Under the pieces are notes generated by a model. It was given only the letters and a program-made list of their open reading frames with translations, had not been told where the DNA came from and did no database searches. This document shows, in pieces, positions 27,265 through 63,531 of a stretch of 64,000 nt of DNA; the stretch's first letter is position 1, and every line of letters starts with the position of its first letter. Made by a program: the position numbers and the translations under genes. The stretch comes from Schmidtea polychroa (Eukaryota). The stretch spans positions 182,764,312-182,828,311 of the forward strand of contig CM097886.1 in the NCBI GenBank assembly GCA_044892525.1, written 5' to 3'.

Positions 27265-27334
27265 TAGTGATCGCAACAACCTGAATAATGGAAACAATTT
27301 TAATAATCGACGAAATACGAATAATAACAAACAG

Positions 27335-27487: not shown

Positions 27488-27580
27488 CGAGAAAGAAACC
27501 AACAACAACGACAACCTCAACGAAATAATAATTATACACCAAATCCGCAACGACAAAATAACCTCAGTGAAGGAAAACAA

Positions 27581-37027: not shown

Positions 37028-37429
37028 CGGAACGGAAAAGGGCCATACGAGATCTTATTCGTAGGAGAAACTAACGTAAGAGTGAAATTAGTAAATAATC
37101 CGTTCACCAGGCCAATATACGTAAATGTGGCACGATGTAAACCGATCCCAAAAACAGCCACCAGTCAACCAGAAGGTCGTACGTTAACCACACGTTCTCA
37201 AACTTACAGAATGAACATGATGCAACAGCTCGCAGAACCAACGAATGGGCGATTGGGTATCCAACCATCAGAAGCTGAAAAGATTGTAAAAGAGGTAAAA
37301 ATTAAAATACCCGGATGGGCAAAAGATAGACTGGATTTCGAAATATTGGGAGGTCTATTGACTCTGATCGAGAACTACGCAAACCGAGAGAGGACACATC
37401 CATTGCTACGAGTAGTTAAAAGTCAATGA
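37028..37429 (+). pseudogene. Integrase C-terminal GPY/F region, in frame after TAG 37025-37027
   Basis: KL*RNGKGPYEILFVGETNVRVKL...VNVARCKP; same frame as the polyprotein. Confidence 0.85.
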
Positions 37430-40429: not shown

Positions 40430-40569
40430 AAAGGGTTATGACTGTATATAGTTGTAAAAAGTAAGTATATCTTATGTATATAACAGTATCATATTTTTAT
40501 ATAAGCGCGGTATTAATAGTATATAACGACCGGGAGAAATAAACAATATAAAATTAAATAAGATAAAGA

Positions 40570-40953
40570 TTGAGGATGTATGTAAAATTAAGAATGGAGC
40601 GAGGAAATAACGAAATAAATCGCAATACAACAACCGAAGATATGTGGAAGCAACAATGTGCTGGACTAGCACAAATAGTGTCAAATTTGCAGGAACAAGG
40701 ACTTACGATGCAAAGAAACCTGGTTGATAGCCTAAACAAGGGATTTAGCTATTTAAAAATAATCGAGGAGCAGAGAGCAGTAATAGAACAGATGCAAAGA
40801 GAGATAGAGCGGATAACAAGATACAGCCAGAGACAGGAAGAAGAATTAGTGAGGATGGCGGAAGAAGCAGAATACGAGGAAATGGAAGATTGGTCAGAAT
40901 GGTTAATGAGTAGAGAAGAGGGCGGACAGGAGGCCGACTCTTCTGAACCATAA
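40570..40953 (+). CDS. Small coiled-coil accessory protein
   Basis: 127-aa ORF with the same A-rich composition as the element, heptad-like E/Q/R-rich sequence, flanked by AT-rich spacers. Confidence 0.6.
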   Translation: MRMYVKLRMERGNNEINRNTTTEDMWKQQCAGLAQIVSNLQEQGLTMQRNLVDSLNKGFSYLKIIEEQRAVIEQMQREIERITRYSQRQEEELVRMAEEAEYEEMEDWSEWLMSREEGGQEADSSEP

Positions 40954-41019
40954 TCAAGGCCTAAAATTAAATGTAAATAACTGTAAATAAATATCGAACC
41001 TGTATCGATAAGAAATTAT

Positions 41020-42426
41020 ATGTGTATAATTGTAGACATGGATAAACAAAAGAGAGAAGAGTTCAACGAAATCATCGAGTTAGTCAGAGATTCCGCAGCA
41101 ATCAGAATACACAAACATGTCATGTGTGGAATATGTGAAAAATTATTAAAAGAACCCCATCAAACCCAATGCGGATGCAGAGTGTGCAAAGAATGTATAA
41201 AAGAAACAATAAAAAACCGACCACAGTGGTGCCCGATATGTAAAGAGACACTGATATCAAGTTTAGAAGATACTAATGAAGACAAAGCCGCGGTAAAGGA
41301 CATGTTGAACACTAATCTGGGATGTAAAAATACCCCATGTGAATGGAAAGGATCAATATGGAAAGTGAAACAACATCTGGTGGAATGTATGTACAAAGTC
41401 AGCCAGTGTGAACGATGCCAGAAATTAATTCAAGCTAACGAAGAAAAGGAACATCAAAGTCAGTGTGAAGAAAGGTTGGAAAGATGCGAATATTGCGGAG
41501 AAGTAGACACATGGAAAAATCTCACCATCAAACATCACAATGTCCAAGAGGAAAAGGTATGTGCAGAATTCTGTGGTGAATGCCCGAACGGATGCAACAA
41601 AGGGGGAGTAATAAAATTAGCCCAGCATCTAAAAGAATGCGAAAGGAAAAGAATGATATGCGTACTAGGCAAATGGGGGTGTCAGAAATTACTACACCGA
41701 GGAGACTTGCCACACCACTTAACCGAAAATGTAATAACTCACGCAGAGATGTGGTCAACTGCGCTACAAGACAGTGAAGAGAAAGTGCGACAAATGGAGA
41801 TAGAAATAACCTCACTGAAAGCATTAGTAAAAGAACTACTAGAAGAACGAGAGGCTTTTGAACAAGCTCGAGCAAACATAAAAATGCAAATTAATCGAAT
41901 GGAAATCAGTAACGATCAGGCCAAAGTACTGCATCAGAAAATAAATGAAATCAATCTAAATGAGGTAATACCAACTGCACCGTATATATGGAAAATAACG
42001 GGAGTAAAAGAAAGAGTACGAAAAGCAAAAACCGGAGAAGATACAAGACTAACAAGCCCCGCATTCCATTCCTGGAAAAACGGATACAAAATGAAAATGA
42101 AGGTATATCCCAACGGGGACGGGACCGGATTAGATACGCATTTTTCGATCTTCTTTATGCTCTGCAAAGGGGAGTATGATGAAATATTAGAATGGCCATT
42201 CCAGGCAAAAATCGATATTACACTAATGAACAACCAAAGTATACACGAGCAAAGCTTCAAAACAACGGGGAATCAGATAGCTTACCAGAGGCCCCTCAAC
42301 GAAGAAGGAGCAGCAACAGGAGCACCGACGTTCATTTTACAACAAAGGGTAGAAGATATGGCGAGAAATGATACCGTATATATCAAGATGACGGTTCGGA
42401 GGGAAGGAAAGAGTAGAACCGAGTAA
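41020..42426 (+). CDS. TRAF: Full-length TRAF-like protein (RING, TRAF zinc fingers, coiled coil, MATH/TRAF-C)
   Basis: CGICEKLLKEPHQTQCGCRVCKEC...CPIC; C-X-N..CEW, HL.EC fingers; YIWKI...SPAF...GYKM...YPNGDG...THFSIFF..KGEYD.IL.WPF. Confidence 0.93.
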   Translation: MCIIVDMDKQKREEFNEIIELVRDSAAIRIHKHVMCGICEKLLKEPHQTQCGCRVCKECIKETIKNRPQWCPICKETLISSLEDTNEDKAAVKDMLNTNLGCKNTPCEWKGSIWKVKQHLVECMYKVSQCERCQKLIQANEEKEHQSQCEERLERCEYCGEVDTWKNLTIKHHNVQEEKVCAEFCGECPNGCNKGGVIKLAQHLKECERKRMICVLGKWGCQKLLHRGDLPHHLTENVITHAEMWSTALQDSEEKVRQMEIEITSLKALVKELLEEREAFEQARANIKMQINRMEISNDQAKVLHQKINEINLNEVIPTAPYIWKITGVKERVRKAKTGEDTRLTSPAFHSWKNGYKMKMKVYPNGDGTGLDTHFSIFFMLCKGEYDEILEWPFQAKIDITLMNNQSIHEQSFKTTGNQIAYQRPLNEEGAATGAPTFILQQRVEDMARNDTVYIKMTVRREGKSRTE

Positions 42427-42619
42427 CCAGGGTGAATAATGTTGTATATAATAAATTTGTATATATCGGTGTATATAACCTATAAAATAGTATATAATAA
42501 TAGTATGGGATCCACAAATACAACAACCCAAAACTGAAGCGAAAAATCCAGGAAAAACATCAACCGAATAATAAAATCCAATAATGCGATGATATTTAAT
42601 CAGAATCTATAATTTAGAA

Positions 42620-43675
42620 ATGACACAAGAGAAAACAACTGAAACTACGATGACCCCAAATAATACCAACAAGACACAAATCCCCAGAGAATATAGTGAG
42701 AAATGGAACAAGGTGATGTTCCAATTAGCTAACCTCACCCGAAATCACATTGAGGAAGCCAGGGAGTACGAAACCCACAAATACCAATGGCTGGTAGACA
42801 ATTTAAGAACGGAAGCGGAAACATGTAAAAGGGCCGCAAAATGGGCTTCGTTAGAAAATACTCGACAAGAATCGCACAGTCACTATCTAAAACAACTACT
42901 ACAAGAATCGCGGAAAAGACTGACTGATGAGAATAAAAAACGAGAGACCGAAAAACAGAAAGAGGAGAAAAAGATGCGACATTTATTGGCAGAAGCACGA
43001 AAATGGAAACGACAGAACAGAGAAATGAGAAAGGAAATGAAGGAATTGCCTATGAGATTAGAGTACGAGAGCGAGCAGGGCAAATGGGAAGAGAACTTAG
43101 TTATAAAAGAGGAACTAAAACGGCTAAGAAAGATCGCGGCTCGGAGCCAAACCTGGCAGACTAAGGCCATGGAGTTTGAAAGACATTTAGCCATGAAACT
43201 CTCCATAAGGGAGCACGAGAATGCAGCGATGGAAGAATTGATACTCCAGCAGTCGGGGCGAGTCGGGGAATTAATAAATCAAGTTACCGAGCTAAAACGA
43301 GATGTCAATGGATATCAGGGAGCCCTAGAACAAAGAAACATAGTATTGGTAGGAAAAAATAAAAAGCTAGAAAACGAAAGAAAAATGTATAACGAAAATC
43401 TCAAAAATTTGGAGATAGAAATCGAGAAATGGAAGGGCGACGAAAAAATAAAAGAGTTGGATAGGCAACTAAAGGTAAAAGACGAAGAGATGAGATACCT
43501 CACCTACCTACTCGACGAGGAACTGAATATCACAAGAGCCTTACGAGATGAAGTACAGGAACTGAGGGCTCAAATTCCCCAATATTACATACCATATGAC
43601 CCTATTGCCGTTCAACTACAGGCAGCGGTCGAAAGCGATGAAGGATACGGGGGTCAGGAGGAAACCTTCGTATAG
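42620..43675 (+). CDS. Coiled-coil (SMC/myosin-tail-like) accessory protein
   Basis: Intact 351-aa ORF, E/K/R/L heptads; AATAAA at ~43681. Confidence 0.75.
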   Translation: MTQEKTTETTMTPNNTNKTQIPREYSEKWNKVMFQLANLTRNHIEEAREYETHKYQWLVDNLRTEAETCKRAAKWASLENTRQESHSHYLKQLLQESRKRLTDENKKRETEKQKEEKKMRHLLAEARKWKRQNREMRKEMKELPMRLEYESEQGKWEENLVIKEELKRLRKIAARSQTWQTKAMEFERHLAMKLSIREHENAAMEELILQQSGRVGELINQVTELKRDVNGYQGALEQRNIVLVGKNKKLENERKMYNENLKNLEIEIEKWKGDEKIKELDRQLKVKDEEMRYLTYLLDEELNITRALRDEVQELRAQIPQYYIPYDPIAVQLQAAVESDEGYGGQEETFV

Positions 43676-45480: not shown

Positions 45481-45977
45481 TGTTGGGCTGAGTCGAAAGC
45501 TTGATCGTCAAATTTAGGACAGATAAGACGCGAACAAATAAAATAAGACCACAAATTGCTAAAATAAATAAATCAAGAGACAAAAGAAACAATAACGTAA
45601 AATATTAAGATTAAAACAAAAAACAAAAAATAGAAAAATTAAAATAAGGTAATAAGATAAGGAATAAAATGACGAAAAATGCAACAAATAATGAGGAATT
45701 TAAGAAACAAATAAAAAATATATTAAAATAAAGAAAAATAAGGAAAAACAACCAAAGAAATAAGAAAAACAAATAAATTTAAAAGTTAAAGCGGTACTCA
45801 ATTTTGATTGGTCCGCATAAACAAAAAATTCCTATATAAGCAAACGGCAAATTCAATATAGTTACTGTTTAACAAACACCATTACAGGTAAGCTCATAAT
45901 TTTAAAAACTGACTGTTTAACAAACACCATTACAGATCAACACTCAACCATTACAGACGATCACCGACGTACAACCT
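45481..45977 (+). repeat. 3' LTR of the giant element, left piece (interrupted by the nested element)
   Basis: Matches 19817-20313. Confidence 0.92.
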
Positions 45978-46876
45978 TGTTGTGGTTGGGGCAGTCCGAT
46001 CTGGTATTTTGGCAATAGAATTTTCAGTAAGAGCATCGTCTAGATAACCGCCTTTCATAACATGACATAAGAGAACTTTATTGCGTTGCGAATTATGATT
46101 TTCGACAACTTTCATTCCATTCATTTCTTGGAATATTGGTTTCTGGTAATCAAATATACATTTGTTGCTAGTATTAACTGGCTTCCAATTAATTAATTCC
46201 TTATATGTATATAATGGTCGCATTTTTCTACAAATCGGCTGATAAAATTGAAAACTTATAAAATAAATCATAAAGAGTTAATGTCAGCTTTTATTTAATT
46301 ACCAAAATTTTTTTTGGAATATATAAACAAGCAAGGAAATCTTTTACAAAATTTATACATATAAGTAAACAAAATTACAAAAAATACAAAATTATATCAT
46401 TCGATAAAAAATAAACAGATTTTTAAAAATATATAATTTAAAAAGCTTACGATTTTATAAAGTTCGCGTAAGAATTTCACATAGTCAATTACTAATAAAT
46501 AAATGCAAAATAAACAAATTTAGGTTTTTATATTATTGTTAGGATTTGTTCCGTATTTCGCGAATTGTAATGGATGAGGGTGTTGGTCTATGAGAGCCAA
46601 CACTAAAACTATTGGGAGCCGAATACAGTTTATCTTGATAATGATAACATGGCATCGAATTTGCTTTACTCTTCTGAGATTGATTAATAGAGCCTGATTG
46701 ATAAGTAGAAGTATTAGCTGATCGCACGAATTTTGATTGACTGTTATTGTGTTCTGTTTGGTCCTTAGTCGCTGGTGACCGCGCATTTATATATATAATA
46801 TAATATCGTATAATATAATATAATATAGTATAATAGGTATATAGATATTGTTAAGGCCGTGTAACGGCTCACTACA
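45978..46876 (-). repeat. 3' LTR of the nested element
   Basis: Differs from 53037-53936 at two positions seen by eye (one substitution, one 1-bp indel). Confidence 0.95.
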
Positions 46877-47045
46877 TCAGCCCCACGGGAAGTCGCGGAG
46901 CGCACAGGGACTCAAGAATAGAGATTGATGAAAGATCTACTAGAAACAAGATGTAAGTCGAAAAGTAGTGACAATTTATGAAAGGTAGATAGTGTCTAAA
47001 AAGGAAATCGGTGATTGATGAATTAATTGATCACATGGAATAAAG

Positions 47046-50000
47046 TTAAGTGAATTTCAGCATCAGATGTGTCAAGTTTTCATTGGAATAGACTCTGGCA
47101 AGTCTTGGAGGTTTGGAAATGTCTTCCCCAATTTGGCGCACCCAAATCTTATCACTATGTTTCACATTTTTCGCGGTTCGCTGCTTGTCGGGTTTCGAAA
47201 CAATTGAGCGAAGATTAAGTGGATTTGTTGTTGCTGAATGTGTATTCTCTGTAGCTAAATTTTCATCGCGTTGGTAGTTTGTGATCATGGTACGCACGAT
47301 TTCGTTTGAGTCCGTGGCCGGTTCTACTGAAAGGTTTTCGTTCGACGTAGTTGAAATGGGTTCGACTGAGACTTTCTCTAAATCAGAGTGAAGTTTGTCT
47401 TCGTCCACGTCATCAGAAATCATAAAAGCCGGTTTAAGTCGGCACAAATTTATATTTTGGGTAACACCGTTAATAACGATGTGAGCATTGTTATCCTTAA
47501 TGTCGATCAATTTGTAAGGCCCCGAATATCTCGGTTTGAGACCTGAATCCGTAATATTACGAAGATAAACGTGAGTTGCGTCCTTGAAGGACTTTGGGAC
47601 GTACGGTGTATATGAGGAAGCATAAGAAAACTGTGGGTTGCTATCGATCGAAAGAAAATGATCTCTAGCCATATCTAATTCCTCAAAGGTAGGAGCGTTA
47701 TCGAAATCAACTAATTCGTTAGGTAACGATGTTGAAGAACCAAAAAGTAACTGTGCCGGTGTAGTTCCGGTAGTCCTGGAGGGTGTGTTACGCCAACCAA
47801 GAAGGACAAAAGGTAAAGCTTTAGTCCAATTAAGTCTCGATGAAAGTATTCCAAGAGAGGTCTTCAAAGTACGGTGAAATCTTTCGATCATGCCGTTTGT
47901 CTGAGGATGGTAAGCAGTTGAACGGAGGTGTTGTATACCGAGCTTTTCAGTTAGCTGTTGAAATAACTGGGATTCAAACTGAGATCCCCTGTCTGTGATT
48001 ATTGATTTCGGAACACCGTATCTAGAAATCCAATGTTGCAAAATTGAATTTGCTACAATTTCAGCAGAAATGTTTTTCAGAGGAATAACTTCAAACCAAC
48101 GCGTTTTCCGGTCAATCATAGTTAATAAGTAAGAAAAACCGTGATCAGAAGGCAAGGGGTCGACCAGGTCGATGTGAAGAATTTCGAACCTATTTCTGGT
48201 CGGATAGTGAATCATCTGTGGCTTAGTGTGTCTAGTGATCTTGTGTTGTTGACAACCGATGCACTGACTCACCCACAATTTAATATCGTGCCTCATTGCT
48301 GGCCAAACCACATGTGAATGCAATAGGTTAAAGGTAGCCGACGAGCCTGGATGATGTAAGTCGTGAATGGAGTGGAAAGCTAATTTCCGTAAGGAATCGT
48401 GCAAAATCGGTCTTAAAACACCTGATAAAGACGAGTCAAAGTGTACTCCGTCCACGATTTCAAGTTTATCGCCAAAAGCAGCTAGATCTTTTGCCGAAGG
48501 TGGATTGTCGCGGAGGCACTGTACTGGAAATATCGGATCGTGCAATATAGCGTTGGTGCTGCGGGAAAGACAGTCTGCAATAACGTTTTCTTTGCCGGCA
48601 ATGTGGCGTATTTCGCAAGAAAATTCTGAAATATAACTGATTTGCCTCTGTTGTCGTGGAGATGGGTCTTTCATTCCAAAAAGATAAGTTAGCGGTTTGT
48701 GGTCAGTGTAGATGACAAAAGGACGACCTTCAAGCAAGTGCTTGAAATGTTTGATTGAAAGATATATGCCTAAGAGTTCTCGGTCGAAAGCCGAATATTT
48801 CCGTTGAGCGGAAGAAAGTTTCTTTGAGAAAAACTCTAAGGGTTCAGAAATGTCATTATGTAATTGGTGTAATACTGCACCAATAGCAACGTTTGATGCA
48901 TCAGTGGTCAGACTCCAAGGTAAATCAGCATTGGGAAAATGGAGTGTTTGGATTTTCGAAAGTGCCGACTTAGCGTTTTCAAATGCACTGAGTGTGGTAT
49001 CGCTCCATGACACTAAAGACTTTTTTGGTTTTGAGACGAGACCTGAAAGAGGTGACAAAATGTCAGAAACCCCTGGAATAAAACGATGACAATAGTTTAT
49101 CGTTCCAAAAAAACTTCTCAGTTGTGAAACTGTTTTTGGAAGTGGGAATTTGGCTATGGTATCTAGTCTATCCGGAGGAGGTCGGATTCCATCTGCGGAA
49201 ATTAAATGTCCCAGGAAACGAGTCTCGTGTTGGAAGAAGGTACACTTATCGACGTTTACCTTAAGGTTGTATTGCCGAAGTGCTGTTAAAGTTTTTGTCA
49301 GATGGGTTATATGCGTCTCTAAGTCAGGTGATCCGACTAAAATGTCGTCTATGTAAGGAACTGCGAAAGGCAGGTCCATTAAGACTTGATCAATATACCT
49401 TTGAAAGGTCTGTGCAGAATTCCGAAGGCCAAATGGCATATGCACGTACTCGAAAAGTCCGATCGGAGTTATTACGGCTGTTTTTTCTATGTCAGACTCT
49501 CGCACGGGTATCTGATGGTACGCCTTCACGAGGTCGATTGTGGAGAAAATCTTTGCCTTTGAAAGACGGTGAAGGATATCACTAACAAGCGGCATGCTAT
49601 AGGAATCATGTACCGTAATAGCATTAAGGTTTCGATAGTCGCCACACGGACGGAAAGTGCCATCTTTTTTTGGGACCAGGTGCAATGGCGATGACCATGG
49701 AGATTTAGATCTCCGAATGGTACCCTCATGTAAGAGGTTAGTAAACTCGGAACGTACAAATTCGAGTTTTTCATTCGACAGTGGTCTAATTTTGCATCTA
49801 ACTGGTAAAGATGAAGTTGTGTCGATCGTGTGGCAGTAAAGCGGCTTCGAAACGTCACTTATTGGCGTGTTAAAACACCTATTAATAATATCTAAGGCTA
49901 TTTTTGGGTGTTCGATTGTTATAACCGTTTTCGACGGAGTAGTATTTATATCGTCCGTTCCTATCCGTTGTGGATCTTCAAAGATGTTTGAGGGAATAGT

Positions 50001-50411
50001 GCTGCAGTTTAATTGATTATTTATCCTTAAAGTGCGTCCGCGGCAATCTACGAGTAGTTCGTTAGCGCTTAAAAAATCAGATCCTGATATGGGGATAATA
50101 ACCTCTGCTATATAAAATTTCCACTCAAATAATTGGTCGGACAGAAATGGCAACGAGAAAGCAATTGTCTTTGAACCTAAAGTCTCAACAACACTACCGT
50201 TTGCGGCCTTCAAAGAAATATCGACAGTGTTGAGGTCTGGAAGGTACTCTTTAGGTAAGATCGACAAGCTGGAACCAGTGTCGACAAGGAATTTTAGTCT
50301 GTTGGAAGGAGACGACAATATATTAAAAGCGTTTGACTCTGCTTCTATTAAAAATAAATCTGATTTCGATGAAATTTTGCCTCCCACCTCTGCCGCTAGA
50401 AGTGGTGGCAT
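47046..50411 (-). CDS. pol: Pol (PR-RT-RH-IN) of the nested element
   Basis: LVDTGSS, PCGDYRNLN, YIDD, TDAS, TDHKPL, HHCC, DLVD/TDRG/IERFHR, PRYSGPY. Confidence 0.97.
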   Translation of the reverse strand: MPPLLAAEVGGKISSKSDLFLIEAESNAFNILSSPSNRLKFLVDTGSSLSILPKEYLPDLNTVDISLKAANGSVVETLGSKTIAFSLPFLSDQLFEWKFYIAEVIIPISGSDFLSANELLVDCRGRTLRINNQLNCSTIPSNIFEDPQRIGTDDINTTPSKTVITIEHPKIALDIINRCFNTPISDVSKPLYCHTIDTTSSLPVRCKIRPLSNEKLEFVRSEFTNLLHEGTIRRSKSPWSSPLHLVPKKDGTFRPCGDYRNLNAITVHDSYSMPLVSDILHRLSKAKIFSTIDLVKAYHQIPVRESDIEKTAVITPIGLFEYVHMPFGLRNSAQTFQRYIDQVLMDLPFAVPYIDDILVGSPDLETHITHLTKTLTALRQYNLKVNVDKCTFFQHETRFLGHLISADGIRPPPDRLDTIAKFPLPKTVSQLRSFFGTINYCHRFIPGVSDILSPLSGLVSKPKKSLVSWSDTTLSAFENAKSALSKIQTLHFPNADLPWSLTTDASNVAIGAVLHQLHNDISEPLEFFSKKLSSAQRKYSAFDRELLGIYLSIKHFKHLLEGRPFVIYTDHKPLTYLFGMKDPSPRQQRQISYISEFSCEIRHIAGKENVIADCLSRSTNAILHDPIFPVQCLRDNPPSAKDLAAFGDKLEIVDGVHFDSSLSGVLRPILHDSLRKLAFHSIHDLHHPGSSATFNLLHSHVVWPAMRHDIKLWVSQCIGCQQHKITRHTKPQMIHYPTRNRFEILHIDLVDPLPSDHGFSYLLTMIDRKTRWFEVIPLKNISAEIVANSILQHWISRYGVPKSIITDRGSQFESQLFQQLTEKLGIQHLRSTAYHPQTNGMIERFHRTLKTSLGILSSRLNWTKALPFVLLGWRNTPSRTTGTTPAQLLFGSSTSLPNELVDFDNAPTFEELDMARDHFLSIDSNPQFSYASSYTPYVPKSFKDATHVYLRNITDSGLKPRYSGPYKLIDIKDNNAHIVINGVTQNINLCRLKPAFMISDDVDEDKLHSDLEKVSVEPISTTSNENLSVEPATDSNEIVRTMITNYQRDENLATENTHSATTNPLNLRSIVSKPDKQRTAKNVKHSDKIWVRQIGEDISKPPRLARVYSNENLTHLMLKFT

Positions 50412-51757
50412 TATAAGTTTTTTTGATTGCTTGCTTTAGGTTTTGTGTAATTGGAGCAGCCTTCGAAGCATTTTAAGGCTTTATCTCCAAACCTGTCGTG
50501 GTATATGCACTTGTCAAGTATCTGACAGGATGGTGCTTTATCTCGCCAATTGCAACCTAGATAGCAGAACCGTGCCTTGTTACGAAACTTAAAATGGAAA
50601 CGGCACAGGTTCCTGGTTGCAGGGGAAGGTGAACGTTGACGAGTATTTTGCACGAAGTGTGATTTTTGGGCATATTGCCTGTCGTCATTTGTCTGCCTGG
50701 TGGACATGCTATTCTCAAGCTCGCTGATGCGTTTAGTGAGGCCTGTAATAGCGCAAAGTAAGGCTTCTTCGGTCGAAGGTTTTAAAGAAGAAGGTAAAAT
50801 TTCGGGGTTAGTGCTGCTACTTAACTGCACAGAGCAAGTTGGTTGCGGACCAAGTGGCACGACTTCGTTAATCTTGTCGGCCATCTTTGCTAGCTCTACC
50901 ACGTCTGCTGTTGACGAAAGCGCTAAAATTTGTTGTGCGTGTGGCGGTAAAGCAGACAGAAAAAATTGCCTCAAGAGTTTTTGATCCGCCGCAGCCTCCG
51001 GGTGTATTTGCGTTAGTTCCGCCATAGCGTGTTGCAAGAACTGTGATGGTTTTCTGCTGCCCAAAGTTTGCGTCTTGAAGTATTTAGTGAAGACGGCAGC
51101 TGTAGGTTCCTTAAAAATATCGAGGATTGCCGTACGCAATTCTTCATATGGGTTTTTTACGCTAGTAGGCGAAGTGCGAAGGATCACGGACGAAAGTTTA
51201 CTTAATATCGTCGGCGGAATCAACGGCAAGATGCGACAGTATTTGTCTCGTGAACTGGTTACCTCGATTCCCTCGAGTGCTAGTTCGGTAGCTATCAGCC
51301 AAGTAAGTAGAGAGTTATTCTCATCCAAAAAATATTGACATAAGTACGTTGATCGCTGGTTGTTGGACCTACGCTTATGTTTTGCCTGTTTGGGGTTGCT
51401 GCATGAGTCATTCTCCGAATCGGAGGAACCGCCAGAAAGTGGCAACAAACAATGAATGACGCTGTATGGTGTCACTCCATAGTCGCCCAAGGTACGACTG
51501 TCGGAAAGGATGTTGCCGTTATACGACAAGAGAAAATGGCATTTGTGATTAGTCAATGTCCTGTAATTTTTAGAAAGACCTTTAATTGTAGTGTCTGTGT
51601 CAACTGAAACGGTTTGTGTCTTATTTGTTCCAGGGTTTTCTATTAATATTTGGAACTTTTTGGGCCCCGGTGCGGCGCTACCCTCTCGTGTGGGCTGATG
51701 CTTATTTATATAATTTTTTATAATTTTATATATGATATCAATAATAATATAAATCAA
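50411..51757 (-). CDS. gag: Gag with N-terminal ubiquitin-like domain and two CHCC zinc motifs
   Basis: Ubl at 51655-51428 ending LPLSGG; capsid PYEELRTAIL...LGSRKPSQFL...LRQFFLSALP; two Cx2Hx9Cx3C motifs. Confidence 0.9.
   Translation of the reverse strand: MIYIIIDIIYKIIKNYINKHQPTREGSAAPGPKKFQILIENPGTNKTQTVSVDTDTTIKGLSKNYRTLTNHKCHFLLSYNGNILSDSRTLGDYGVTPYSVIHCLLPLSGGSSDSENDSCSNPKQAKHKRRSNNQRSTYLCQYFLDENNSLLTWLIATELALEGIEVTSSRDKYCRILPLIPPTILSKLSSVILRTSPTSVKNPYEELRTAILDIFKEPTAAVFTKYFKTQTLGSRKPSQFLQHAMAELTQIHPEAAADQKLLRQFFLSALPPHAQQILALSSTADVVELAKMADKINEVVPLGPQPTCSVQLSSSTNPEILPSSLKPSTEEALLCAITGLTKRISELENSMSTRQTNDDRQYAQKSHFVQNTRQRSPSPATRNLCRFHFKFRNKARFCYLGCNWRDKAPSCQILDKCIYHDRFGDKALKCFEGCSNYTKPKASNQKNL
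50417..50423 (-). other. Probable -1 ribosomal frameshift site A AAA AAC at the gag-pol junction (also a TAATG stop/start overlap)
   Basis: Minus strand CAA AAA AAC TTA TAA TG; pol is in the -1 frame relative to gag. Confidence 0.75.
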
Positions 51758-53330
51758 TAATAATATAGTATAATTTAATAATAATATAATTTAGAGGTAA
51801 TCGATCTAAGGTACCTGGCGGTGCTGACACGGGCATTGCTCTATTGAGTCTCGATTCGCTGGGAGACGGTTTATTATCGTGAATAAATGGCTGTCCCGGT
51901 GCACGAGAGTTTAATGTGAAAAAATCATTATTCTGTTGCATTAAGAATTCATTTGGATTTGGTCGAAGCATGATGCGTTGTGGGGCTGTGTGTAAGACAT
52001 CACTCGTTAGCGATTTGTTATTTGGTATATAATTATTGATCGGAGTCATTTTTTGACGATTTTCAACGGCAATCATCTCAGCCAATGCTTGCCGGGAAAC
52101 ATTAATCGAATCAAAATCTATATCGGCTGTATCTTTATATTTCTGATCGTAATGTGAGTTCGGTTTCTCCGAGCCAAATATGCGATTTATATCCATTTCG
52201 TTTCGATACTGATACTGACCGTAGTTAAGCACACCGTTGTTGTTTGCCTGTTGATTGATGTTGTGATCGTATGACTGATTATTATTGTTGTTATTGTTGA
52301 TTGCGGCGTGGTTTTGAGAATTTAAATGGTAGAAACTTTCCAGCAGAGAATTCGACGAACCAACTGAATTCAAACTGTTCATAAATGATTTCTGATCTGA
52401 AACTCCTGACAGGGGAGGTGTGGAATTCAGTGTACTGTGGAATTCAGTAATATCATTAACAACTGAGCTATTGAAAGCACTGAATAGGGGAAATTCGGAT
52501 TTAATATCCGATGATTCAGATTGTAATTGAATACTTTTATTGATAAATTTGAAAGACGATTTATTTATCGGGTCAGCAATTTGAAATTGACCATTTGGGA
52601 TATGATTATTATCTGTGATATTTGCAGGGGTTGAAATGGAATTACTTGATGATGTAGACTGCTGTAATTCTTTATAATACATATTTAAATCCTTACATAG
52701 AACGACTACAGGATCCACAGAATCACGATCTAGAATTGTCTGAATTAATTTGATATACTCTTCTCGATTCGATGACAAACAACAGGAATGAGCAATTATC
52801 AAATGATCTATCAGCCTATCAATATCATGGGATATAAGATTAAATTTTGATGAAAGTTTTAATTCAGAAAATATTTTGGAAAGCATATGGAACATATTTT
52901 GACGTAATTCCGCTGTTCGTTTATGAGAAACTAACATAGATTGTATTTCCTGTAATCTGGATTTAACAATGATATTAGATAAATAAGTTTCTAATTGTTC
53001 AAATCTTGAACATTGTTCTGGCACTTCTGACACCAATGTTGTGGTTGGGGCAGTCCGATCTGGTATTTTGGCAATAGAATTTTCAGTAAGAGCATCGTCT
53101 AGATAACCGCCTTTCATAACATGACATAAGAGAACTTTATTGCGTTGCGAATTATGATTTTCGACAACTTTCATTTCATTCATTTCTTGGAATATTGGTT
53201 TCTGGTAATCAAATATACATTTGTTGCTAGTATTAACTGGCTTCCAATTAATTAATTCCTTATATGTATATAATGGTCGCATTTTTCTACAAATCGGCTG
53301 ATAAAATTGAAAACTTATAAAATAAATCAT
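51738..53330 (-). CDS. Extra ORF0 starting inside the 5' LTR: ENGase (GH85) N-terminal fragment fused to an unknown helical, N/S/Q-rich region
   Basis: 530 open codons crossing the LTR end and PBS; LYTYKELINWKP and SQRNKVLLCHVMKGGYLDD match ENGase LSSLEELLAWKP and SQRPRTLLCHDMMGGYLDD. Confidence 0.7.
   Translation of the reverse strand: MIYFISFQFYQPICRKMRPLYTYKELINWKPVNTSNKCIFDYQKPIFQEMNEMKVVENHNSQRNKVLLCHVMKGGYLDDALTENSIAKIPDRTAPTTTLVSEVPEQCSRFEQLETYLSNIIVKSRLQEIQSMLVSHKRTAELRQNMFHMLSKIFSELKLSSKFNLISHDIDRLIDHLIIAHSCCLSSNREEYIKLIQTILDRDSVDPVVVLCKDLNMYYKELQQSTSSSNSISTPANITDNNHIPNGQFQIADPINKSSFKFINKSIQLQSESSDIKSEFPLFSAFNSSVVNDITEFHSTLNSTPPLSGVSDQKSFMNSLNSVGSSNSLLESFYHLNSQNHAAINNNNNNNQSYDHNINQQANNNGVLNYGQYQYRNEMDINRIFGSEKPNSHYDQKYKDTADIDFDSINVSRQALAEMIAVENRQKMTPINNYIPNNKSLTSDVLHTAPQRIMLRPNPNEFLMQQNNDFFTLNSRAPGQPFIHDNKPSPSESRLNRAMPVSAPPGTLDRLPLNYIIIKLYYIIIDLYYY
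53022..53035 (-). promoter_or_regulatory. Primer-binding site, tRNA-Leu(CAA)
   Basis: TGGTGTCAGAAGTG one base after the 5' LTR, complementary to the tRNA-Leu 3' end CACTTCTGACACCA. Confidence 0.9.
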
Positions 53331-53936
53331 AAAGAGTTAATGTCAGCTTTTATTTAAATTACCAAAATTTTTTTTGGAATATATAAACAAGCAAGGAAAT
53401 CTTTTACAAAATTTATACATATAAGTAAACAAAATTACAAAAAATACAAAATTATATCATTCGATAAAAAATAAACAGATTTTTAAAAATATATAATTTA
53501 AAAAGCTTACGATTTTATAAAGTTCGCGTAAGAATTTCACATAGTCAATTACTAATAAATAAATGCAAAATAAACAAATTTAGGTTTTTATATTATTGTT
53601 AGGATTTGTTCCGTATTTCGCGAATTGTAATGGATGAGGGTGTTGGTCTATGAGAGCCAACACTAAAACTATTGGGAGCCGAATACAGTTTATCTTGATA
53701 ATGATAACATGGCATCGAATTTGCTTTACTCTTCTGAGATTGATTAATAGAGCCTGATTGATAAGTAGAAGTATTAGCTGATCGCACGAATTTTGATTGA
53801 CTGTTATTGTGTTCTGTTTGGTCCTTAGTCGCTGGTGACCGCGCATTTATATATATAATATAATATCGTATAATATAATATAATATAGTATAATAGGTAT
53901 ATAGATATTGTTAAGGCCGTGTAACGGCTCACTACA
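53037..53936 (-). repeat. 5' LTR of the nested element
   Basis: Followed by the PBS; TG...CA ends. Confidence 0.95.
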
Positions 53937-55937
53937 AACCTAAACGACTATCAGTGACAATTAGATTTTCAACTCAGTACAATAACCGAATTCAGCTTTT
54001 CGACTCAGCTTTTCGAGATCACAGATCGATAAAGAATAAAGTAAGGATGTATTCTTATTATGAATTTGAGTAAATGTTTCTCATGGAAGTTAATAGTAAT
54101 AATGTTTATTATCACAATTTTAATAAAATTTTAATGTTCTCTCCATTTGGTCTCATATTTTAATAATCAAGTATTTTCAGTAATGAAATTTAAAGCCTTT
54201 TATGATAGATACTATGCATGATAATTTCGATTTTTATGGAATTTATATGAAAATTATGATCGAGTAACGTGGAGTTGAGGAGACCTGTACCATGGTGTGA
54301 GGAGCCTTCGGGAGCTCAGCCGGTGGGTACAGGCTTCTTCAATCACGCAGCTGACGTGGGCCGGAAAGTGGGGGCTTCCTCACGGGTCCGTCGCTGAGGG
54401 AATTAAAATGTTGCAAGAATTAGCTGACAATAACATAGAGTACCATTCGGATTTGACAATGAGAACGATCTTAAAAACAATGACTGAGGTGGCTACAAAA
54501 CGTTTATTTTTCGAAACTCATCATCCTTAGCTGTTACATCTTGAATTCTTTACCTAATATCCGTGATTAGTCTGAATTGCCTAAGTGTACCAATCGACAT
54601 TCCATCTTCTGAGTACCAAACCCTTTTCTGTTGAAATGCACGTCAATTTCCGTCTGACCTGTAGAAACTGAGTACCAACCCATTCGTCGACGCTATACAA
54701 TCACATGAGAAGTATAGATGAAATTTATTGGACACAATTTTTTAATAAGAAAATGTATTACGAAACTGTTTTATTTTTAACCAAATTATTTCGAAGTGTT
54801 CTGAAAATTACACTCACAGTAGGATAAACTCCCTTCAGTGAAGGACACCTCCGATTGACCTTGTCAAATTGCAGATTTTTCGAATAAGTCGAAGGAAATG
54901 TCCACGAAATAAAGTTATCCAAGTAGAAAACACAATTAACTGCACATCGCGGGGAATAAATCCAACATTAGCGTTTGATGAGAGAGCAACCTAGATGACA
55001 TATTGATTCCACGAATTGATTCGGCCCAGTGGTGTATTGCGATCATCTGCGAACGATAATTCCGATAATGAGCAAACATACGAGATAAATCACACGCACT
55101 AACACACTAGTACTTACTCACATATGCGACAAGCAGTATTTTCCCAGTCAGCTACAAGTATTGAGAACCGAAATTGAAACACGCACATACAACAAGGTTG
55201 GCTCGGATAGATAGCAGGCTGCCTGTCTCATGCTTCCATTATCTGGCGTGACGAACTATTTTACATGAGATTAATCTTATTACAGGTGTTTCCCGACATA
55301 CAATTAATTTCATCGTAGATTAAAATTTTAACTTGCAGGATGATAATTCCGAACATCAATAATAGATAACGGCCAGGTGATTAGTGTATATTCCAAACAA
55401 TTTGGTATTAAACAGAGACCCAGCAGCTATTGAGTGGAGATTAATTTTGCCTGCGCATCCGCTTGCCGAGGTGGGAATTCTGAGTTATGTCCTGGGGGAA
55501 TAATGCGTTGGTTAAGGGGGAAATCGGAAGGCGTTAACAATAAAATTTTGTTTTCTGCGTTTGGTCTATTTCCAAAGATATTATTTGAAGGAATTATTAG
55601 TTATCGGCTCAATTTCGTTGTCCATTTTGTGTACAAGGAGGTTGGGCATCCCCGCATCTAATTAATTACGAATTTGTTTTGTTGTTTCTCCATTACACCA
55701 AGGGAAAGGGGGTCACGGCTTACAACTCGACCGGTAGATGACATTCGAATTTAATAATAATAACTCAGAGATTTTCTTCACCCATTAGCATAAATCCCTT
55801 CCTCTTAATATATTAGGACCACATCAAAATTAATGTATAGCTTGTAGGAAAATTCATAGATGATTAGGCCACCAGGCTGGTTTAATAGACATAGCAAATC
55901 TTGTATTTTATCCTTATTGTTTCTTTCATTATAGCCA

Positions 55938-56693: not shown

Positions 56694-57498
56694 AGCTCTC
56701 AATCCAATGCAACTACATCGATCATGTTTAGTAAATTGAACGATTCTGACTTATATGTTCTCGTAAACCGTCTTCCCTTGATTTATATTAGTCCTGTAGT
56801 TTTAACTGTATAGCGTACTATGATAGTAGAATAAAGAAATTTTCGTCATTTCTTATTGTTAGTTTTTGTTTGATTAGCCATTGTAAAGGTTCAGAGTAGT
56901 TTTTACAACCCAAGCGCAAACTTTAGTTCGAAAGGCATTAGACAATCTGTATATAACTCGGTGTCAGGTAGGGAAGGAAATGGTGGAGTGATCAGACGTA
57001 AGCCCTTCCATCGGCAGTCAGAAAAAGGAAGTCGAGGCCTCAGTAAGGAGTAGTCCTAAGGTAGGGGCTCACCTGCTTACTGGTGTCTCGCCGGCATAGC
57101 ACATTTCCAACGTGGAGCAATTCACGGGTGCTATGTTGGAGTACAGGTTGTGCGGGGTCTTGCTCCGGATTGACGTAAGCACACTTAGCGTAAATGAATG
57201 GACACTCATCTCCTAGACAGGTGCGTAAATGAGTTAAGGTCAATCAAGCACTACCCCAGCATGATTTTTGGGGGCTCAGCCGGGATTTATTATTGAATTT
57301 CCGTCGAATAGTGTGAATTCACCGGGATTATGGATTTCAATTGATTGGCGAAGACAAATTGACTAATGCTTAGCGAATCTTATTATAAAACCACGATTAG
57401 GAAATAATAAAACTAAAGATACAAATAAAGTAAATTTAATAGTGGGGAAATGAGATAAAAGTAAAATAAGTTATAACGATCTTAAAAAGAAAAAATGT

Positions 57499-58044
57499 GT
57501 GATGAAACAACCATTAATTAGCTGTAGATTATTAAAATATTTTCTTTTCCCAATAGATATGACGGAATTCGCAGAACAGATTCAACAATTAATCAATTTC
57601 ATTAATATAGAAAACGACCATATTAAAACACTCATACAAAAAAGAGAACGAATCAATAGCATTCTACTCCAAGCAATCGGACACACACCAGTCGTACCTA
57701 ACCACGTGTTAATGGCCGCAGGTTTAAGCCGTCCAGAGGGTAAAATAAATCACGAAACGGTATATCAATGGTATGTAGAAAGACTAAAAAACCCGGCCCT
57801 GAACATAGAATACGAGCGAATAAAAGATCAGTTACATACAATATCAGAGGCAATTGAACAAAGGATCCAAGAGAAACTCGCTGAATTACGAACTTGTCAG
57901 TCTTGCCACCTTCGCCCTATACGCGTACTGTTCTTGCCTTGTGGACACCTCAGTCATTGTGAAGAATGCGTACAAGATCTGAAACGATGTACAATATGCA
58001 AACATGAGATAAAAGAAACCCATATGGTTTATTACGGTGATTAA
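57499..58044 (+). CDS. Second copy of the LTR-encoded IAP-type RING protein
   Basis: Identical translation to 23871-24416. Confidence 0.88.
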   Translation: MMKQPLISCRLLKYFLFPIDMTEFAEQIQQLINFINIENDHIKTLIQKRERINSILLQAIGHTPVVPNHVLMAAGLSRPEGKINHETVYQWYVERLKNPALNIEYERIKDQLHTISEAIEQRIQEKLAELRTCQSCHLRPIRVLFLPCGHLSHCEECVQDLKRCTICKHEIKETHMVYYGD

Positions 58045-59930: not shown

Positions 59931-59986
59931 TTACATAATATATTTAATTAATCCTATTGTGTGTGTGTAAATTTTAATATATAAAA

Positions 59987-61273
59987 ATGAATAATATAAA
60001 AATTCAAGAAAAAAATAAATTAAATCTTGATTATAATAAAGAATTTACTCATGAAATCAAGAAAAACGATGTACTTAAAATCTCCCCAACTTCAGGATCT
60101 ATTGCAAACTTAAATCGTAGGGGTGATATAGTTTTTCAATCTCTTCAAACATCAAACCCTATAGATATTTGTAATGCCAAATTATATTATAAAATCGAAT
60201 TAGAAATTGAAGCAAACAAAGATATAACCCTAGAAAATAATTTCTTTCCAAATTTATTCTCCAACATGAGATTAAAACTAGGATCATCAGAAATTGAAAC
60301 TGTTTTGCATCCGGGAGTATATTCTACAATGTTAAATTTTAGTTTGACTGGTTGTGATTATAAAAACGAATATGGTGAATTAACAGGTTGGATTCCTGAT
60401 GTTAATAAAGGGGATTTAGATAAAGATGGTTTAGATGTAAACCATGGTTACCATAAAAGAGCTGAACTTTATAAATCTAAAAAATTTGAAGGTTATTTTG
60501 AATTAAAACACTTGTTTGGATTCCTTCAAAACTATAATCGTATACTTCATAATGTTTTTATAGAATTCATCTGTAATAGAGTAGAAGGTGATAAAAGATT
60601 GTTCTATGGAGCTGTAGATACAAAAGCTAAATTAAAATTATCAACACTTGAATTGCATATACCTGAATGGACATTAAACCCACATTCTGAGATTAAACTC
60701 CTTGAAAGATTAAATTCCAACAAGTCTATAAATGTAAATTATTTAAATAGAATCTGTAGTGAATTTAGTATGACAGAGGGTTCAACATATTCTATAAAGG
60801 TAGCAAATTTAGCATACCGACCAAGATATATCTTGATTGGATTCAAAGAAGTAGATTCATCTTTCCAAAAAAATAACAACTTGTTTATTCAAAAGATTGG
60901 AGTTGATAATTTAAAAACAATCCAAATTCAATTAAATAGTTCTTATTATCCAATAAATAGAATGGAATTTAATATTGAAAATAATGAAAACATATTCCCA
61001 TATCTAAATTATATTGAAACATGTTATGATTTCAAAGTTGAACCGCAATTAAGTTTAGAAGATTTCAAAAATTTATATTCTATATTTTGTATAAATGTTT
61101 CAGACCAAGATGATCGCCTAGCCATAAATAATGTTGATGTTACACTTCATGTAACAAAGGATTCTAATTTTAAAGCTAAAGTATATACATTAATATTAGA
61201 AGAAAAGAAAATAGAAATGAAATTATATGGTGGAAAGATATCAATAATCGAAAATGTTAGGGGAGATTCTTGA
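59987..61273 (+). CDS. Polinton major capsid protein (double jelly-roll)
   Basis: 428 aa; NNFFPNLFSNMRLKLGSSEIE, HLFGFLQNYNRIL, PRYILIGF, YSIFCINVS.Q resemble Polinton MCP motifs; gene context. Confidence 0.8.
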   Translation: MNNIKIQEKNKLNLDYNKEFTHEIKKNDVLKISPTSGSIANLNRRGDIVFQSLQTSNPIDICNAKLYYKIELEIEANKDITLENNFFPNLFSNMRLKLGSSEIETVLHPGVYSTMLNFSLTGCDYKNEYGELTGWIPDVNKGDLDKDGLDVNHGYHKRAELYKSKKFEGYFELKHLFGFLQNYNRILHNVFIEFICNRVEGDKRLFYGAVDTKAKLKLSTLELHIPEWTLNPHSEIKLLERLNSNKSINVNYLNRICSEFSMTEGSTYSIKVANLAYRPRYILIGFKEVDSSFQKNNNLFIQKIGVDNLKTIQIQLNSSYYPINRMEFNIENNENIFPYLNYIETCYDFKVEPQLSLEDFKNLYSIFCINVSDQDDRLAINNVDVTLHVTKDSNFKAKVYTLILEEKKIEMKLYGGKISIIENVRGDS

Positions 61274-61302
61274 TATAATCCCTGATATTTTAACATTTTA
61301 AA

Positions 61303-62712
61303 ATGTCTCTAAATAAATATTGGAGATGTGGAAGTTGTAATTGTCAAGTTACAAGACATCATAAAGCAAGTCATTTAAAAACTAAAAAACATACAGGAGG
61401 CGATCTAATTCCACGAGCTGGAGGCGATTTGCAATCTTCAAAAACAACATCTTCAATATTAAAACCTTTTACTACAGAAAAATATCCAGGTGAAAGACAT
61501 TTATTTAAACACAACTATACTGGACCAGGAACACGTCTAGATATTAGATTAGATGAAAATAATAATCCCAAACAAGAAGAAGAACCAATAAATAGAATTG
61601 ATCAAGCAGCTTTAAAACATGACATTGCATACAATTCAACAAATCTTAGAGATAGACATGTTGCAGATGTGAATTTAATACATGATTTAAATAGTATCCA
61701 AAATCCATCAACCCAAGAAAAGATTCAAAGAGCTCTAGTTAAATTAGCAATGAAAGGTAAGATTTTCATAGGCTTAGGACACAGTCCGATCACCATGGGT
61801 GCAAGACTTCCTAGGAAAGCAAAAGATGTTGCTTATAAAAAGATTATCGAACAAGCAGAGATTGAAAGATCCCTCGAGAGTACAGCCAAGACTAGTTTAC
61901 AAACCCCAACAGAATCAGAAATAAAATATGCAAAGGAATTACACCATGAATTTAGAAAAAATAAAAAATATTTAAAAGTTCAAGTACATGAAAAAGATCA
62001 AACATGGTCTGCAGATTTAGTCTTTATGCCCAAATCATCAGACCCTGAAAAATATAAAATAATTTTAACTGTAATAGATTTATATACAAGATTTGCTTTT
62101 GCAAGATGTTTAGAAAATAAAACAGGATATTCTATTACAGAAGCATTTGAAAATATATTTGAAGAAAATCAAAGAATCCCAAAATATTTATGGTGTGATA
62201 AAGGAACAGAATTTTATAACAAAGTTTTTACAAAGTTTTTAAATGAAAATGATATTAAATTATATTCAACAGAAAACGAAGGAAAAGCAGTCGTAGTTGA
62301 AAGATTAAATAGAACATTAAAAAATAAAATGTGGAAATATTTTACTGCTATTGGAAAACAAAAATGGAACAATGAATTGTTACAAAAGATTGTAAATGAA
62401 TATAATAATGATGTACATAGTTCTATAAAATTAACACCTTTAAATGCTTCCATGAAGCCTGAAACCATTAAAGTGGTAAATATTGAAAATGATGTTATTG
62501 AAAAACCAAAGTTTAAAATTGGTGACCGAGTAAGAATATTTAAATATAAAAATAAATTTGAAAAAGGATTCACAGCAAAATGGACAAATGAAATTTTTAT
62601 TATAAATAAAATAAATTATACAACTCCAATAACATATAGCATCTTTGATTTAAATAATGAAAAAATATTAGGTAGATTTTATAATAATGAACTACAGAAA
62701 ACAGATTTTTAA
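61303..62712 (+). CDS. Zinc finger + parvovirus-type phospholipase A2 + retroviral-like (rve) integrase fusion
   Basis: CGSC...HLKTKKH; NYTGPGT and DQAALKHDIAY; WSADL, WCDKGTEF, VVERLNRTLK, KFKIGDRVRI. Confidence 0.9.
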   Translation: MSLNKYWRCGSCNCQVTRHHKASHLKTKKHTGGDLIPRAGGDLQSSKTTSSILKPFTTEKYPGERHLFKHNYTGPGTRLDIRLDENNNPKQEEEPINRIDQAALKHDIAYNSTNLRDRHVADVNLIHDLNSIQNPSTQEKIQRALVKLAMKGKIFIGLGHSPITMGARLPRKAKDVAYKKIIEQAEIERSLESTAKTSLQTPTESEIKYAKELHHEFRKNKKYLKVQVHEKDQTWSADLVFMPKSSDPEKYKIILTVIDLYTRFAFARCLENKTGYSITEAFENIFEENQRIPKYLWCDKGTEFYNKVFTKFLNENDIKLYSTENEGKAVVVERLNRTLKNKMWKYFTAIGKQKWNNELLQKIVNEYNNDVHSSIKLTPLNASMKPETIKVVNIENDVIEKPKFKIGDRVRIFKYKNKFEKGFTAKWTNEIFIINKINYTTPITYSIFDLNNEKILGRFYNNELQKTDF

Positions 62713-62723
62713 GTCGACAAGCC

Positions 62724-63515
62724 CTAAAACAAACTTTTCCATATTTCAGCTTCTTCTCTATCCAAATAAATATAATTATATTTTTCTTTCCAATGATTAT
62801 CAACAAACATATCAAACATATTCTTATCAGGTTCAACATTTGAAAATAAATCATTATAAATCATATTCTTATCACGGCGATCTAATTTAAAAAATATAAA
62901 ACAATTGGAATTATTTCTTATTGAATTTTTATCTAAAGCATAATATGTTTGAGATATATAAATAACATTACAATTATTATGTCGACCTCGTGTAAAGTAA
63001 CTCTTTTGAATCTCTTGATTTTTCATATTAACAACATCATCAAATATAACTAGATTCTTTTTATCTTTAGGAAGTAAATCACAATGTAAAACATCTTCAG
63101 GTTTATTAGAGAATAAAACTTGAATTGCCTCCTGCCCTTCTTCACAAATATAATCATTTTTATTACTAATATCTGATTCTAAAATCTTTTCCTTATACCA
63201 ATCAACCATATCACAAGGTTGAAAAACTTCTTCAGGACACCTATGTTGATTTTTAAAAATATCAATTATTGCTTTTTTAGTTAATTTATTTTCAAATCCA
63301 CATTTCAAAAGTTGTAATTCTGGTTGATTTATGGTTGTAGAATAAAAGATTAAATTATTATAATCTAAAAAATCATCTTCAAGTAACATTCTCAAAACAA
63401 GTACATTCTTTCCACATCCAGAAGAACCAACAATTAATAATCTAAAATTATCAGGAAATACTTTATTATTGAATTTACTCTTATGTCTATTTAAAATTGG
63501 TTTCCAAGTATCCAT
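62724..63515 (-). CDS. A32/FtsK-HerA-like DNA-packaging ATPase
   Basis: Walker A GSSGCGKN (Asn in place of the usual Thr/Ser), Walker B LVIFDD, RGRHNN, YISQ. Confidence 0.9.
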   Translation of the reverse strand: MDTWKPILNRHKSKFNNKVFPDNFRLLIVGSSGCGKNVLVLRMLLEDDFLDYNNLIFYSTTINQPELQLLKCGFENKLTKKAIIDIFKNQHRCPEEVFQPCDMVDWYKEKILESDISNKNDYICEEGQEAIQVLFSNKPEDVLHCDLLPKDKKNLVIFDDVVNMKNQEIQKSYFTRGRHNNCNVIYISQTYYALDKNSIRNNSNCFIFFKLDRRDKNMIYNDLFSNVEPDKNMFDMFVDNHWKEKYNYIYLDREEAEIWKSLF

Positions 63516-63531
63516 TTTTATTTATTATAAA

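Follow-up and report, generated by a model that had tools for sequence, protein, structure and literature searches.

What is a ubiquitin-like domain (Ubl) doing immediately in front of the Gag of a retrotransposon? The question is raised by a stretch of 64,000 nucleotides of the Schmidtea polychroa genome (hereafter the window), in which an LTR retrotransposon encodes a Ubl that ends in Gly-Gly and lies in frame directly before Gag. Maturation of retrotransposon Gag is normally the work of a protease that the element itself encodes. From comparative sequence analysis, we consider it probable that here a host deubiquitinase (DUB) cuts after the Gly-Gly and frees Gag from a variable front section, as in cytopathic pestiviruses.

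The element spans 45978-53936 on the minus strand (Table 1), and its LTRs, of 900 and 899 bp, are 99.78% identical by self-BLAST. With LTRs of the TG...CA type, a primer-binding site and the order protease, reverse transcriptase, RNase H and integrase (PR-RT-RH-IN) in pol, it belongs to Ty3/Gypsy; the top PDB match of pol is Ty3 Gag-Pol (E 7e-112). We take the primer-binding site to be of the Leu type. An empty site matching the AACCT target is found near 20305, in a paralogous repeat. The A-AAA-AAC run in the gag-pol overlap is likely a ribosomal frameshift site, and a comparable short overlap is present at locus L112, on the contig of the relative P0002. The original prediction of an intact young element is borne out for age, as judged from the LTRs, but not for intactness, because ORF1 of the window copy is frameshifted before the Ubl. 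In it, two overlapping frames (51738-53336 and 50411-51790) take the place of one, with the break in an AT-rich tract; no Met precedes the capsid core in the downstream one, where the first Met lies inside the core. Over 51 nt, the AT-rich tract is 84% similar to an AT-rich stretch of LTR sequence. A block of about 50 nt (51792-51840) has unrelated sequence on either side in contigs from runs guessed to be RNA and may be a cis-element common to other elements.

Table 1. Features of the Ubl-Gag retrotransposon, in positions of the window.
Feature	Position	Strand	Remarks
5' LTR, TG...CA	53037..53936	-	900 bp; first in-frame ORF1 ATG at about 53330
3' LTR	45978..46876	-	899 bp
Primer-binding site TGGTGTCAGAAG	53024..53035	-	read from sequence
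5-bp target-site duplication AACCT	45973..45977 and 53937..53941	.	one insertion measured
ORF1 front part, 532-codon frame in window copy	51738..53336	-	mosaic of host-derived pieces
Helical-looking segment, common to copies	52662..53027	-	
209-nt host gene piece, probably GW182/TNRC6	52449..52657	-	in host reading frame
Host CNOT4 piece, about 600 nt, low-complexity region	51843..52437	-	in host reading frame
AT-rich tract (86-88% AT), read as hydrophobic segment	51701..51826	-	frameshift site in window copy
Ubiquitin-like domain (Ubl) ending L-P-L-S-G-G	51428..51655	-	Pfam, AlphaFold, Foldseek
Gag after GG, begins Ser-Ser-Asp	50414..51427	-	DUF7041-type capsid, coiled coil, two CX2HX9CX3C fingers
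gag-pol overlap, pol in -1 frame	50411..50435	-	A-AAA-AAC run
pol, 1129 open codons	47046..50435	-	protease motif DTG, RT, RNase H, integrase (Ty3/Gypsy order)

The insertion has several neighbors in the window. A Burro-like element (26257-43675, plus strand) encodes a Gag, a 3275-codon frame in which a viral fusion glycoprotein precedes PR-RT-RH-IN, and ankyrin and RING-MATH frames; the Ubl-Gag insertion interrupts it near 45977, only in its flanking repeat. A search of the Burro-like ORF with Pfam, host ubiquitin and a profile of the clade Ubls described below found no ubiquitin-like domain. A region at 57454-58044 (plus strand) and 59978-63521, possibly a Polinton-like element, holds a RING-finger frame, a frame resembling a double-jelly-roll capsid (PF21738, E 9e-26) and two more long frames. 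On the minus strand, 161-7019 holds tandem repeats and four long frames (294-1063 codons), of which the three scanned contain no Pfam family.

The domain in front of Gag is a genuine beta-grasp Ubl, as judged by a profile score above cut-off and a predicted ubiquitin fold. It matches Pfam PF00240 (ubiquitin) with 40.3 bits against a cut-off of 25.4, and its sequence matches in the PDB are ubiquitins and ISG15. An AlphaFold model built from a 25-sequence alignment has a beta-grasp with pLDDT of 75-94 by 10-residue block, and Foldseek superimposes this model on ISG15 and ubiquitin with a target TM of about 0.9 and an rmsd of 1.3-1.5 Å. As originally described, 76 residues run from FQILI to LSGG, all 15 residues named as being in ubiquitin register are present, and Ile44 is not kept, position 44 being Ser. 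The emphasis placed on a length of exactly 76 residues has no meaning, however. The alignment with ubiquitin slips by one residue near residue 9-10 and has a single-residue gap behind the helix, so the length is a coincidence of an insertion and a deletion that cancel, and with Phe at position 1 and a frame that is open upstream the domain is not a free unit. Its identity is 29% to host ubiquitin and 16% to host FUBI, values on which FUBI was rejected as the source. The recognition surface of ubiquitin is absent from the window Ubl (Leu42, Ser44, Pro72 and Ser74), Lys48 and Lys63 are also substituted, and the diglycine at ubiquitin positions 75-76 is present.

Where the protein that carries this domain begins is best seen from other copies. 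The genome contains at least 119 matches to the Ubl-Gag element, 57 of them in frames of at least 850 codons, a few of which are lengthened by run-on into pol. At least 439 open codons lie ahead of the Ubl in 20 of 30 copies of one fetched set and in 16 of 20 of another (7 copies are in both), and in continuous copies the Ubl is preceded by roughly 490-640 residues. In all 11 copies measured, the first ATG falls within the LTR, at a distance of 151-487 nt upstream from the primer site, and the subfamilies have different LTR-encoded ORF1 N-termini, all in frame. The predicted product of ORF1 is normally a protein of about 900-1050 residues that starts in the 5' LTR and consists of a front section, the Ubl-GG and Gag. 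The Ubl, first thought to be N-terminal, is internal, as the 16 of 20 fetched copies with an open frame ahead of it indicate. At loci L031-L047, the LTRs of the subfamilies range in length from 748 to 1346 bp and contain differing regions for the start of ORF1. This genome also has at least three other DUF7041 Gag families (L081-L110), which have short frames with their own Met start and no Ubl.

No Pfam family was found in the front section of ORF1. Two host donors were traced through contigs of the guessed-RNA runs that match two stretches of the front section and then run into unrelated sequence; for one of three such host-flank patterns, no match was found in the genome. The piece at 51843-52437 is 94.2% identical over 619 columns to a single host locus (L143), which a CNOT4 RRM match in the same host frame (E 2.8e-10) identifies as host CNOT4. 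The piece at 52449-52657 is 93.3% identical over 209 nt to another single host locus (L111). This locus is probably GW182/TNRC6, its downstream exons giving weak matches to TNRC6-PABC (E 0.022), PAM2 (E 0.41) and the GW182 RRM (E 0.54). In both, the reading frame of the host gene is retained and the known folded domains are missing. Because each sits within one open genomic stretch, we can only infer that they derive from mRNA. The helical-looking segment matches no Pfam family over cut-off, and its Atlas matches are all under 0.9; its two candidate donor loci turned out to be copies of the element, and no donor was found. In a comparison of eight genome copies, Gag and Pol have pN/pS values of 0.17 and 0.15, against 0.86 in the front section and 1.14 in the Ubl; these values come from few changes and, for Pol, from at most 7 copies with a long pol frame. 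Between the captured pieces and the host genes pN/pS is about 0.45 (13 changes each), which would leave room for some constraint at the protein level.

It had been set beforehand that loss of the diglycine among copies would speak against a processing role. From the 119 matches, 81 distinct loci were fetched, 4 of which could not be scored; the diglycine is present in 74 of the 77 others, and the three exceptions are single, more diverged copies. Because the copies are young, conservation within the genome is by itself weak evidence. One copy, L150 (G000:C3:40773500-40778500), has an in-frame internal deletion that takes out the Ubl and the start of Gag.

Conservation over a greater depth can be judged from relatives defined by Gag alone. 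A Gag profile with no Ubl in the query was searched over 1.84 billion representatives, and 150 proteins were listed. A tree was made of 138 sequences, comprising the listed matches with enough core, the window Gag, L112 and three other families of the genome; in this tree the window Gag falls in a clade of 40 tips (FastTree support 0.93). In 36 of these 40, an (L/I/V/A)-x-G-G motif lies 23-60 residues ahead of the Gag core. The predicted proteins of the other four start at a Met 28-44 residues before the anchor, too close to show a junction. The nearest relative, P0002, whose Gag is 37% identical, also has a predicted Met start, and on its contig (L112) an in-frame C-terminal half of a Ubl, ending LLGG, is found just upstream (Pfam E 7e-5). 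The 29 full Ubls of the clade have a median identity of 19%, compared with 31% for the Gag core, and the two glycines are two of the ten invariant columns of the 25-sequence alignment. The diglycine is kept in all 36 informative members, a count that at the glycine and hydrophobic columns is partly by construction because members were picked by a GG-with-hydrophobic rule, and for which the tree count and the 25-sequence alignment serve as independent checks. Because the members are related, none of the clade counts represents independent events.

The tail and the hydrophobic core of the clade Ubls are largely kept: position 73 is Leu in 30 of 36 members, position 72 is Arg or Lys in 27 of 36, and Leu43 and Leu50 are present in 22 and 20 of 29 Ubls, respectively. 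Ubiquitin-Pro fusions are cut poorly. The residue after the diglycine is never Pro in the 36 members and is Ser in 15, the window element included, and the linker behind it is 12% Pro. The predicted proteins of the clade have up to about 870 residues ahead of the Ubl, with pieces of histone H2A, SCC3, 5'-nucleotidase, and CNOT1 plus Rrp44. The last of these combinations, a CAF1-binding piece of CNOT1 with Rrp44-like pieces, is seen in P0048 and P0169; RNA-decay genes recur as cargo (CNOT1 and Rrp44 here, CNOT4 and probable GW182 in the window family), and the other cargo is housekeeping. The Ubl of P0028 is 71% identical to host ubiquitin, compared with 15-29% for its clade relatives, and likely reflects a recent exchange for a fresh ubiquitin. 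Of the 98 tips that fall outside the clade, only P0110 has a Ubl-GG-Gag layout. It combines an ordinary single-CHCC Gag with a RING piece and a Ubl that ends in RLRGG followed by M, and its layout is likely of separate origin. Word-indexed homolog searches returned Gag-only proteins alone, with none among long proteins, and no relatives were found among viral contigs.

A second family of the same genome has a similar arrangement. A Pfam scan of the genome found a BEL/Pao-type family (loci L069-L080, L113-L142 and L145-L149), unrelated to the Ubl-Gag element, with a DUF1759 Gag, LTRs of about 1 kb and a single frame of 1335-1395 codons that starts in the LTR; no reverse transcriptase match was found in any of the four copies scanned. 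The frame encodes host pieces (Rab, proteasome alpha, dual-specificity phosphatase, TCP-1 and DEAD-box), a near-canonical ubiquitin, a second, diverged ubiquitin ending LAGG, and Gag, in that order. The Gag-side unit reads LAGG followed by S in 27 of 29 copies, as found with a query that favored the Gag side. In the upstream unit, the diglycine is kept in 22 of 29 copies and lost in 7, six of which share GV. Judged from their sequences, two unrelated LTR families of one genome converge on the order host pieces, Ubl, GG and Gag.

We propose that translation of the Ubl-Gag element would start at the AUG in the 5' LTR and yield a precursor of about 100 kDa, in which the Ubl would act as an internal spacer and cut site between the host-derived pieces and Gag. 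A host DUB would recognize the ubiquitin fold together with the L-x-G-G tail and cleave after Gly-Gly. Gag would be released with a fixed Ser N-terminus, the same as that expected for the Met-Ser start of P0002 after Met removal, and the front section, which may have little protein function, would depart with the Ubl still on its C-terminus. Such a cut site would allow host pieces ahead of Gag to be gained, swapped or lost with the capsid unharmed. Gag of the window family would need processing because there is no Met between the diglycine and the capsid core. A Met is present there in 15 of 36 clade members, in 5 of them directly after the diglycine, so internal starts are possible for those 15. 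Of the original prediction, then, the picture of an N-terminal ubiquitin-Gag fusion that releases a modifier is not supported, whereas the diglycine as a host-protease signal that makes the Gag N-terminus is well supported by the comparative evidence of its conservation.

Which enzyme would make the cut? Because the window Ubl lacks Arg72, Arg74 and Ile44, we infer a tolerant USP-type protease. FUBI, which is 36% identical to ubiquitin and has no RxRGG tail, is described as being cut by USP16 and USP36 only, its departures from ubiquitin excluding most DUBs (PMC10611586). By this precedent a narrow set of enzymes is expected, and cleavage could fail. The FUBI-like departures of the window Ubl (Pro72, Ser74 and no Ile44) may likewise exclude most DUBs, and for this reason we do not name an enzyme.

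It is also conceivable, although in our view improbable, that the Ubl stays attached, as a folded spacer, a solubility tag or a degradation signal with the diglycine as a hinge or relic, or that the element's own aspartic protease makes the cut. The element does have a protease motif, the surface of its Ubl evolves near the neutral rate (pN/pS 1.14), and Arg72, Arg74 and Ile44 are absent from the window Ubl; Ub/SUMO-like domains are also described inside Burro polyproteins, with no role shown (PMC6431247). A hinge, however, does not need an exact Gly75-Gly76 with Leu73 across Ubls that are 19% identical, and Ile44, kept in 1 of 29 clade Ubls, argues against a degron for a proteasome receptor. 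As for the element's protease, retroviral-type proteases favor hydrophobic sites, and LSGG/SSDS is unlike these.

If a DUB does cut, the diglycine exposed on the departing front section might be activated by E1 and conjugated to host proteins, making the Ubl both modifier and cut site. This we think quite unlikely. Such a cut would indeed expose a C-terminal diglycine on a ubiquitin fold, 23 of the 36 clade members retain Arg72, and conjugation of FUBI has been reported (PMC10611586). The window family nevertheless has Pro72 and Ser74, Ile44 is replaced by Ser, Thr or Cys in 23 of 29 clade Ubls, the surface residues are not conserved, and a free 76-residue unit has no Met of its own, a Met near the Ubl start being found in 2 of 29. 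The free conjugatable modifier that had been suggested is unlikely on the same grounds: no own Met, and no Ile44, Arg72 or Arg74.

We give little credence to splicing or internal initiation as the origin of Gag, in which case the AT-rich tract and the front section would be intronic or untranslated. The tract does start at a donor-like AG/GT in both the Ubl-Gag and BEL/Pao-type families and in the former ends in CAG. However, the GT-AG pair in question would shift the frame, the tract is stop-free in the coding frame in most copies with stops in the other two frames, and in the window family neither Ubl nor Gag has an AUG. No matching GT-AG joint was found in contigs from four runs, three guessed to be RNA and one untyped, which is weak evidence because these contigs cover parts of the region and cannot show expression.

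Hardly credible is a membrane-anchored precursor from which Gag is released, with the hydrophobic segment spanning the membrane. Kyte-Doolittle values over 19 residues do reach 2.3-2.9 in most in-frame copies of the window family and 1.5-2.5 in all but one of the 22 distinct segments of the BEL type. Of the 22 clade members with sufficient sequence upstream, however, only 5 reach 1.9, the BEL-type segments are equally hydrophobic in an alternative frame, as expected of AT-rich DNA, and the AT-rich tract resembles LTR sequence. An anchor general to the clade was rejected on the 5 of 22 members, and anchoring may be relevant to the window family only.

Cleavage by a host DUB, the reading that we favor, has its closest precedent in pestiviruses. 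Ubiquitin inserts of cytopathic strains (BVDV Osloss, CP1 and CP Rit) are reported to be cut by cellular hydrolases (PMC8310069). As in the element, the ubiquitin is internal, behind host-derived sequence, and gives the next protein a defined N-terminus; in CP Rit the first residues of ubiquitin are also missing (PMC8310069). The pestivirus inserts are near-identical to the host sequence and are found in single strains of an RNA virus, where it is NS3 that they release, with cleavage shown (PMC8310069), whereas the Ubl described here is fixed in a deep clade, is 15-30% identical to ubiquitin (71% in one case) and precedes Gag, with cleavage predicted. FUBI-eS30 and the ubiquitin-ribosomal protein fusions (PMC10611586, PMC8354635) provide an example of a diverged Ubl-GG cut by few USPs. 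FUBI, however, is N-terminal with its own Met, whereas the Ubl of the element is internal and nearer to host ubiquitin (29%) than to FUBI (16%).

The element had been assigned to the CsRn1 clade, which is defined by a CX2HX9CX3C Gag, a tRNA-Trp site (TGGTGAG/CCCCGT/A) and a 4-bp target duplication (PMC2582038). The Gag finger supports the assignment; the Trp primer site and the 4-bp duplication do not. CsRn1, PwRn1 and AgCR share with the element the CX2HX9CX3C finger, the DTG motif and the -1 gag-pol overlap (PMC2582038), but the element has two CHCC fingers, the non-Trp primer site TGGTGTCAGAAG, a 5-bp target duplication (one insertion), an ORF1 with its start in the LTR and, before Gag, an extension made up of the patchwork and the Ubl-GG. 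We call it CsRn1-like rather than a CsRn1 member.

LTR-mediated capture of host mRNA, in frame, is described as widespread (Tan et al. 2016, PMC5131818), and Drosophila telomeric elements are described as capturing fragments of silencing genes as a counter-defense (PMC13534243). In both systems, as in the element, the host pieces are in frame and often several (PMC5131818, PMC13534243); the element differs in having full gag and pol, with the pieces in the Gag frame and parted from Gag by Ubl-GG. Because capture of silencing genes and widespread in-frame capture by LTR elements are both reported, passive carriage and an anti-silencing role are both possible for the CNOT4 and GW182-like pieces. 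In Burro/GYPSM1, giant planarian Gypsy elements, a Ub/SUMO-like domain is described in the LTR polyprotein (PMC6431247). That domain belongs to a different lineage and lies after Gag, between MATH and BCL-2, whereas the Ubl considered here lies before Gag; section 7 of PMC6431247 makes no mention of a diglycine or a processing role for it.

A wider reading is possible, although we offer it tentatively and would not expect all of it to hold. The Ubl-GG ahead of Gag could be a license for gene capture, invented at least three times (in the CHCC clade, in the BEL/Pao family of the same genome and in P0110) and renewed from host polyubiquitin, as in P0028. Elements so equipped could take along translated stretches of host genes for RNA silencing and decay, namely CNOT4 and probable GW182 in the window family and CNOT1 with Rrp44 in P0048. 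These stretches could serve as bait against silencing without burdening the capsid, and the Ubl might shed its Ile44 patch and narrow to a dedicated host protease.

In the literature covered, which did not extend to Repbase and subscription journals, so that a brief earlier note may exist, no description of a Ubl-GG ahead of a retrotransposon Gag was found. The words "ubiquitin," "ubl" and "smed" do not occur in the main text of PMC13524379 as available, and the portion of PMC10680173 covered holds nothing relevant. The component parts are known, but a proposed cut site of this kind, conserved in front of Gag throughout a retrotransposon clade, appears to be undescribed.

If the proposed cleavage takes place, a host-protease site kept before Gag over a deep clade would amount to a dependency of LTR elements on their host that seems not to have been described, and it would parallel, in fixed form, the ubiquitin inserts of individual pestivirus strains. 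The cut site would simply explain how up to about 870 changing host residues are tolerated in the Gag frame. The 29 full-length Ubls resemble one another chiefly in fold and tail and would then constitute a natural library for the minimal requirements of DUBs.
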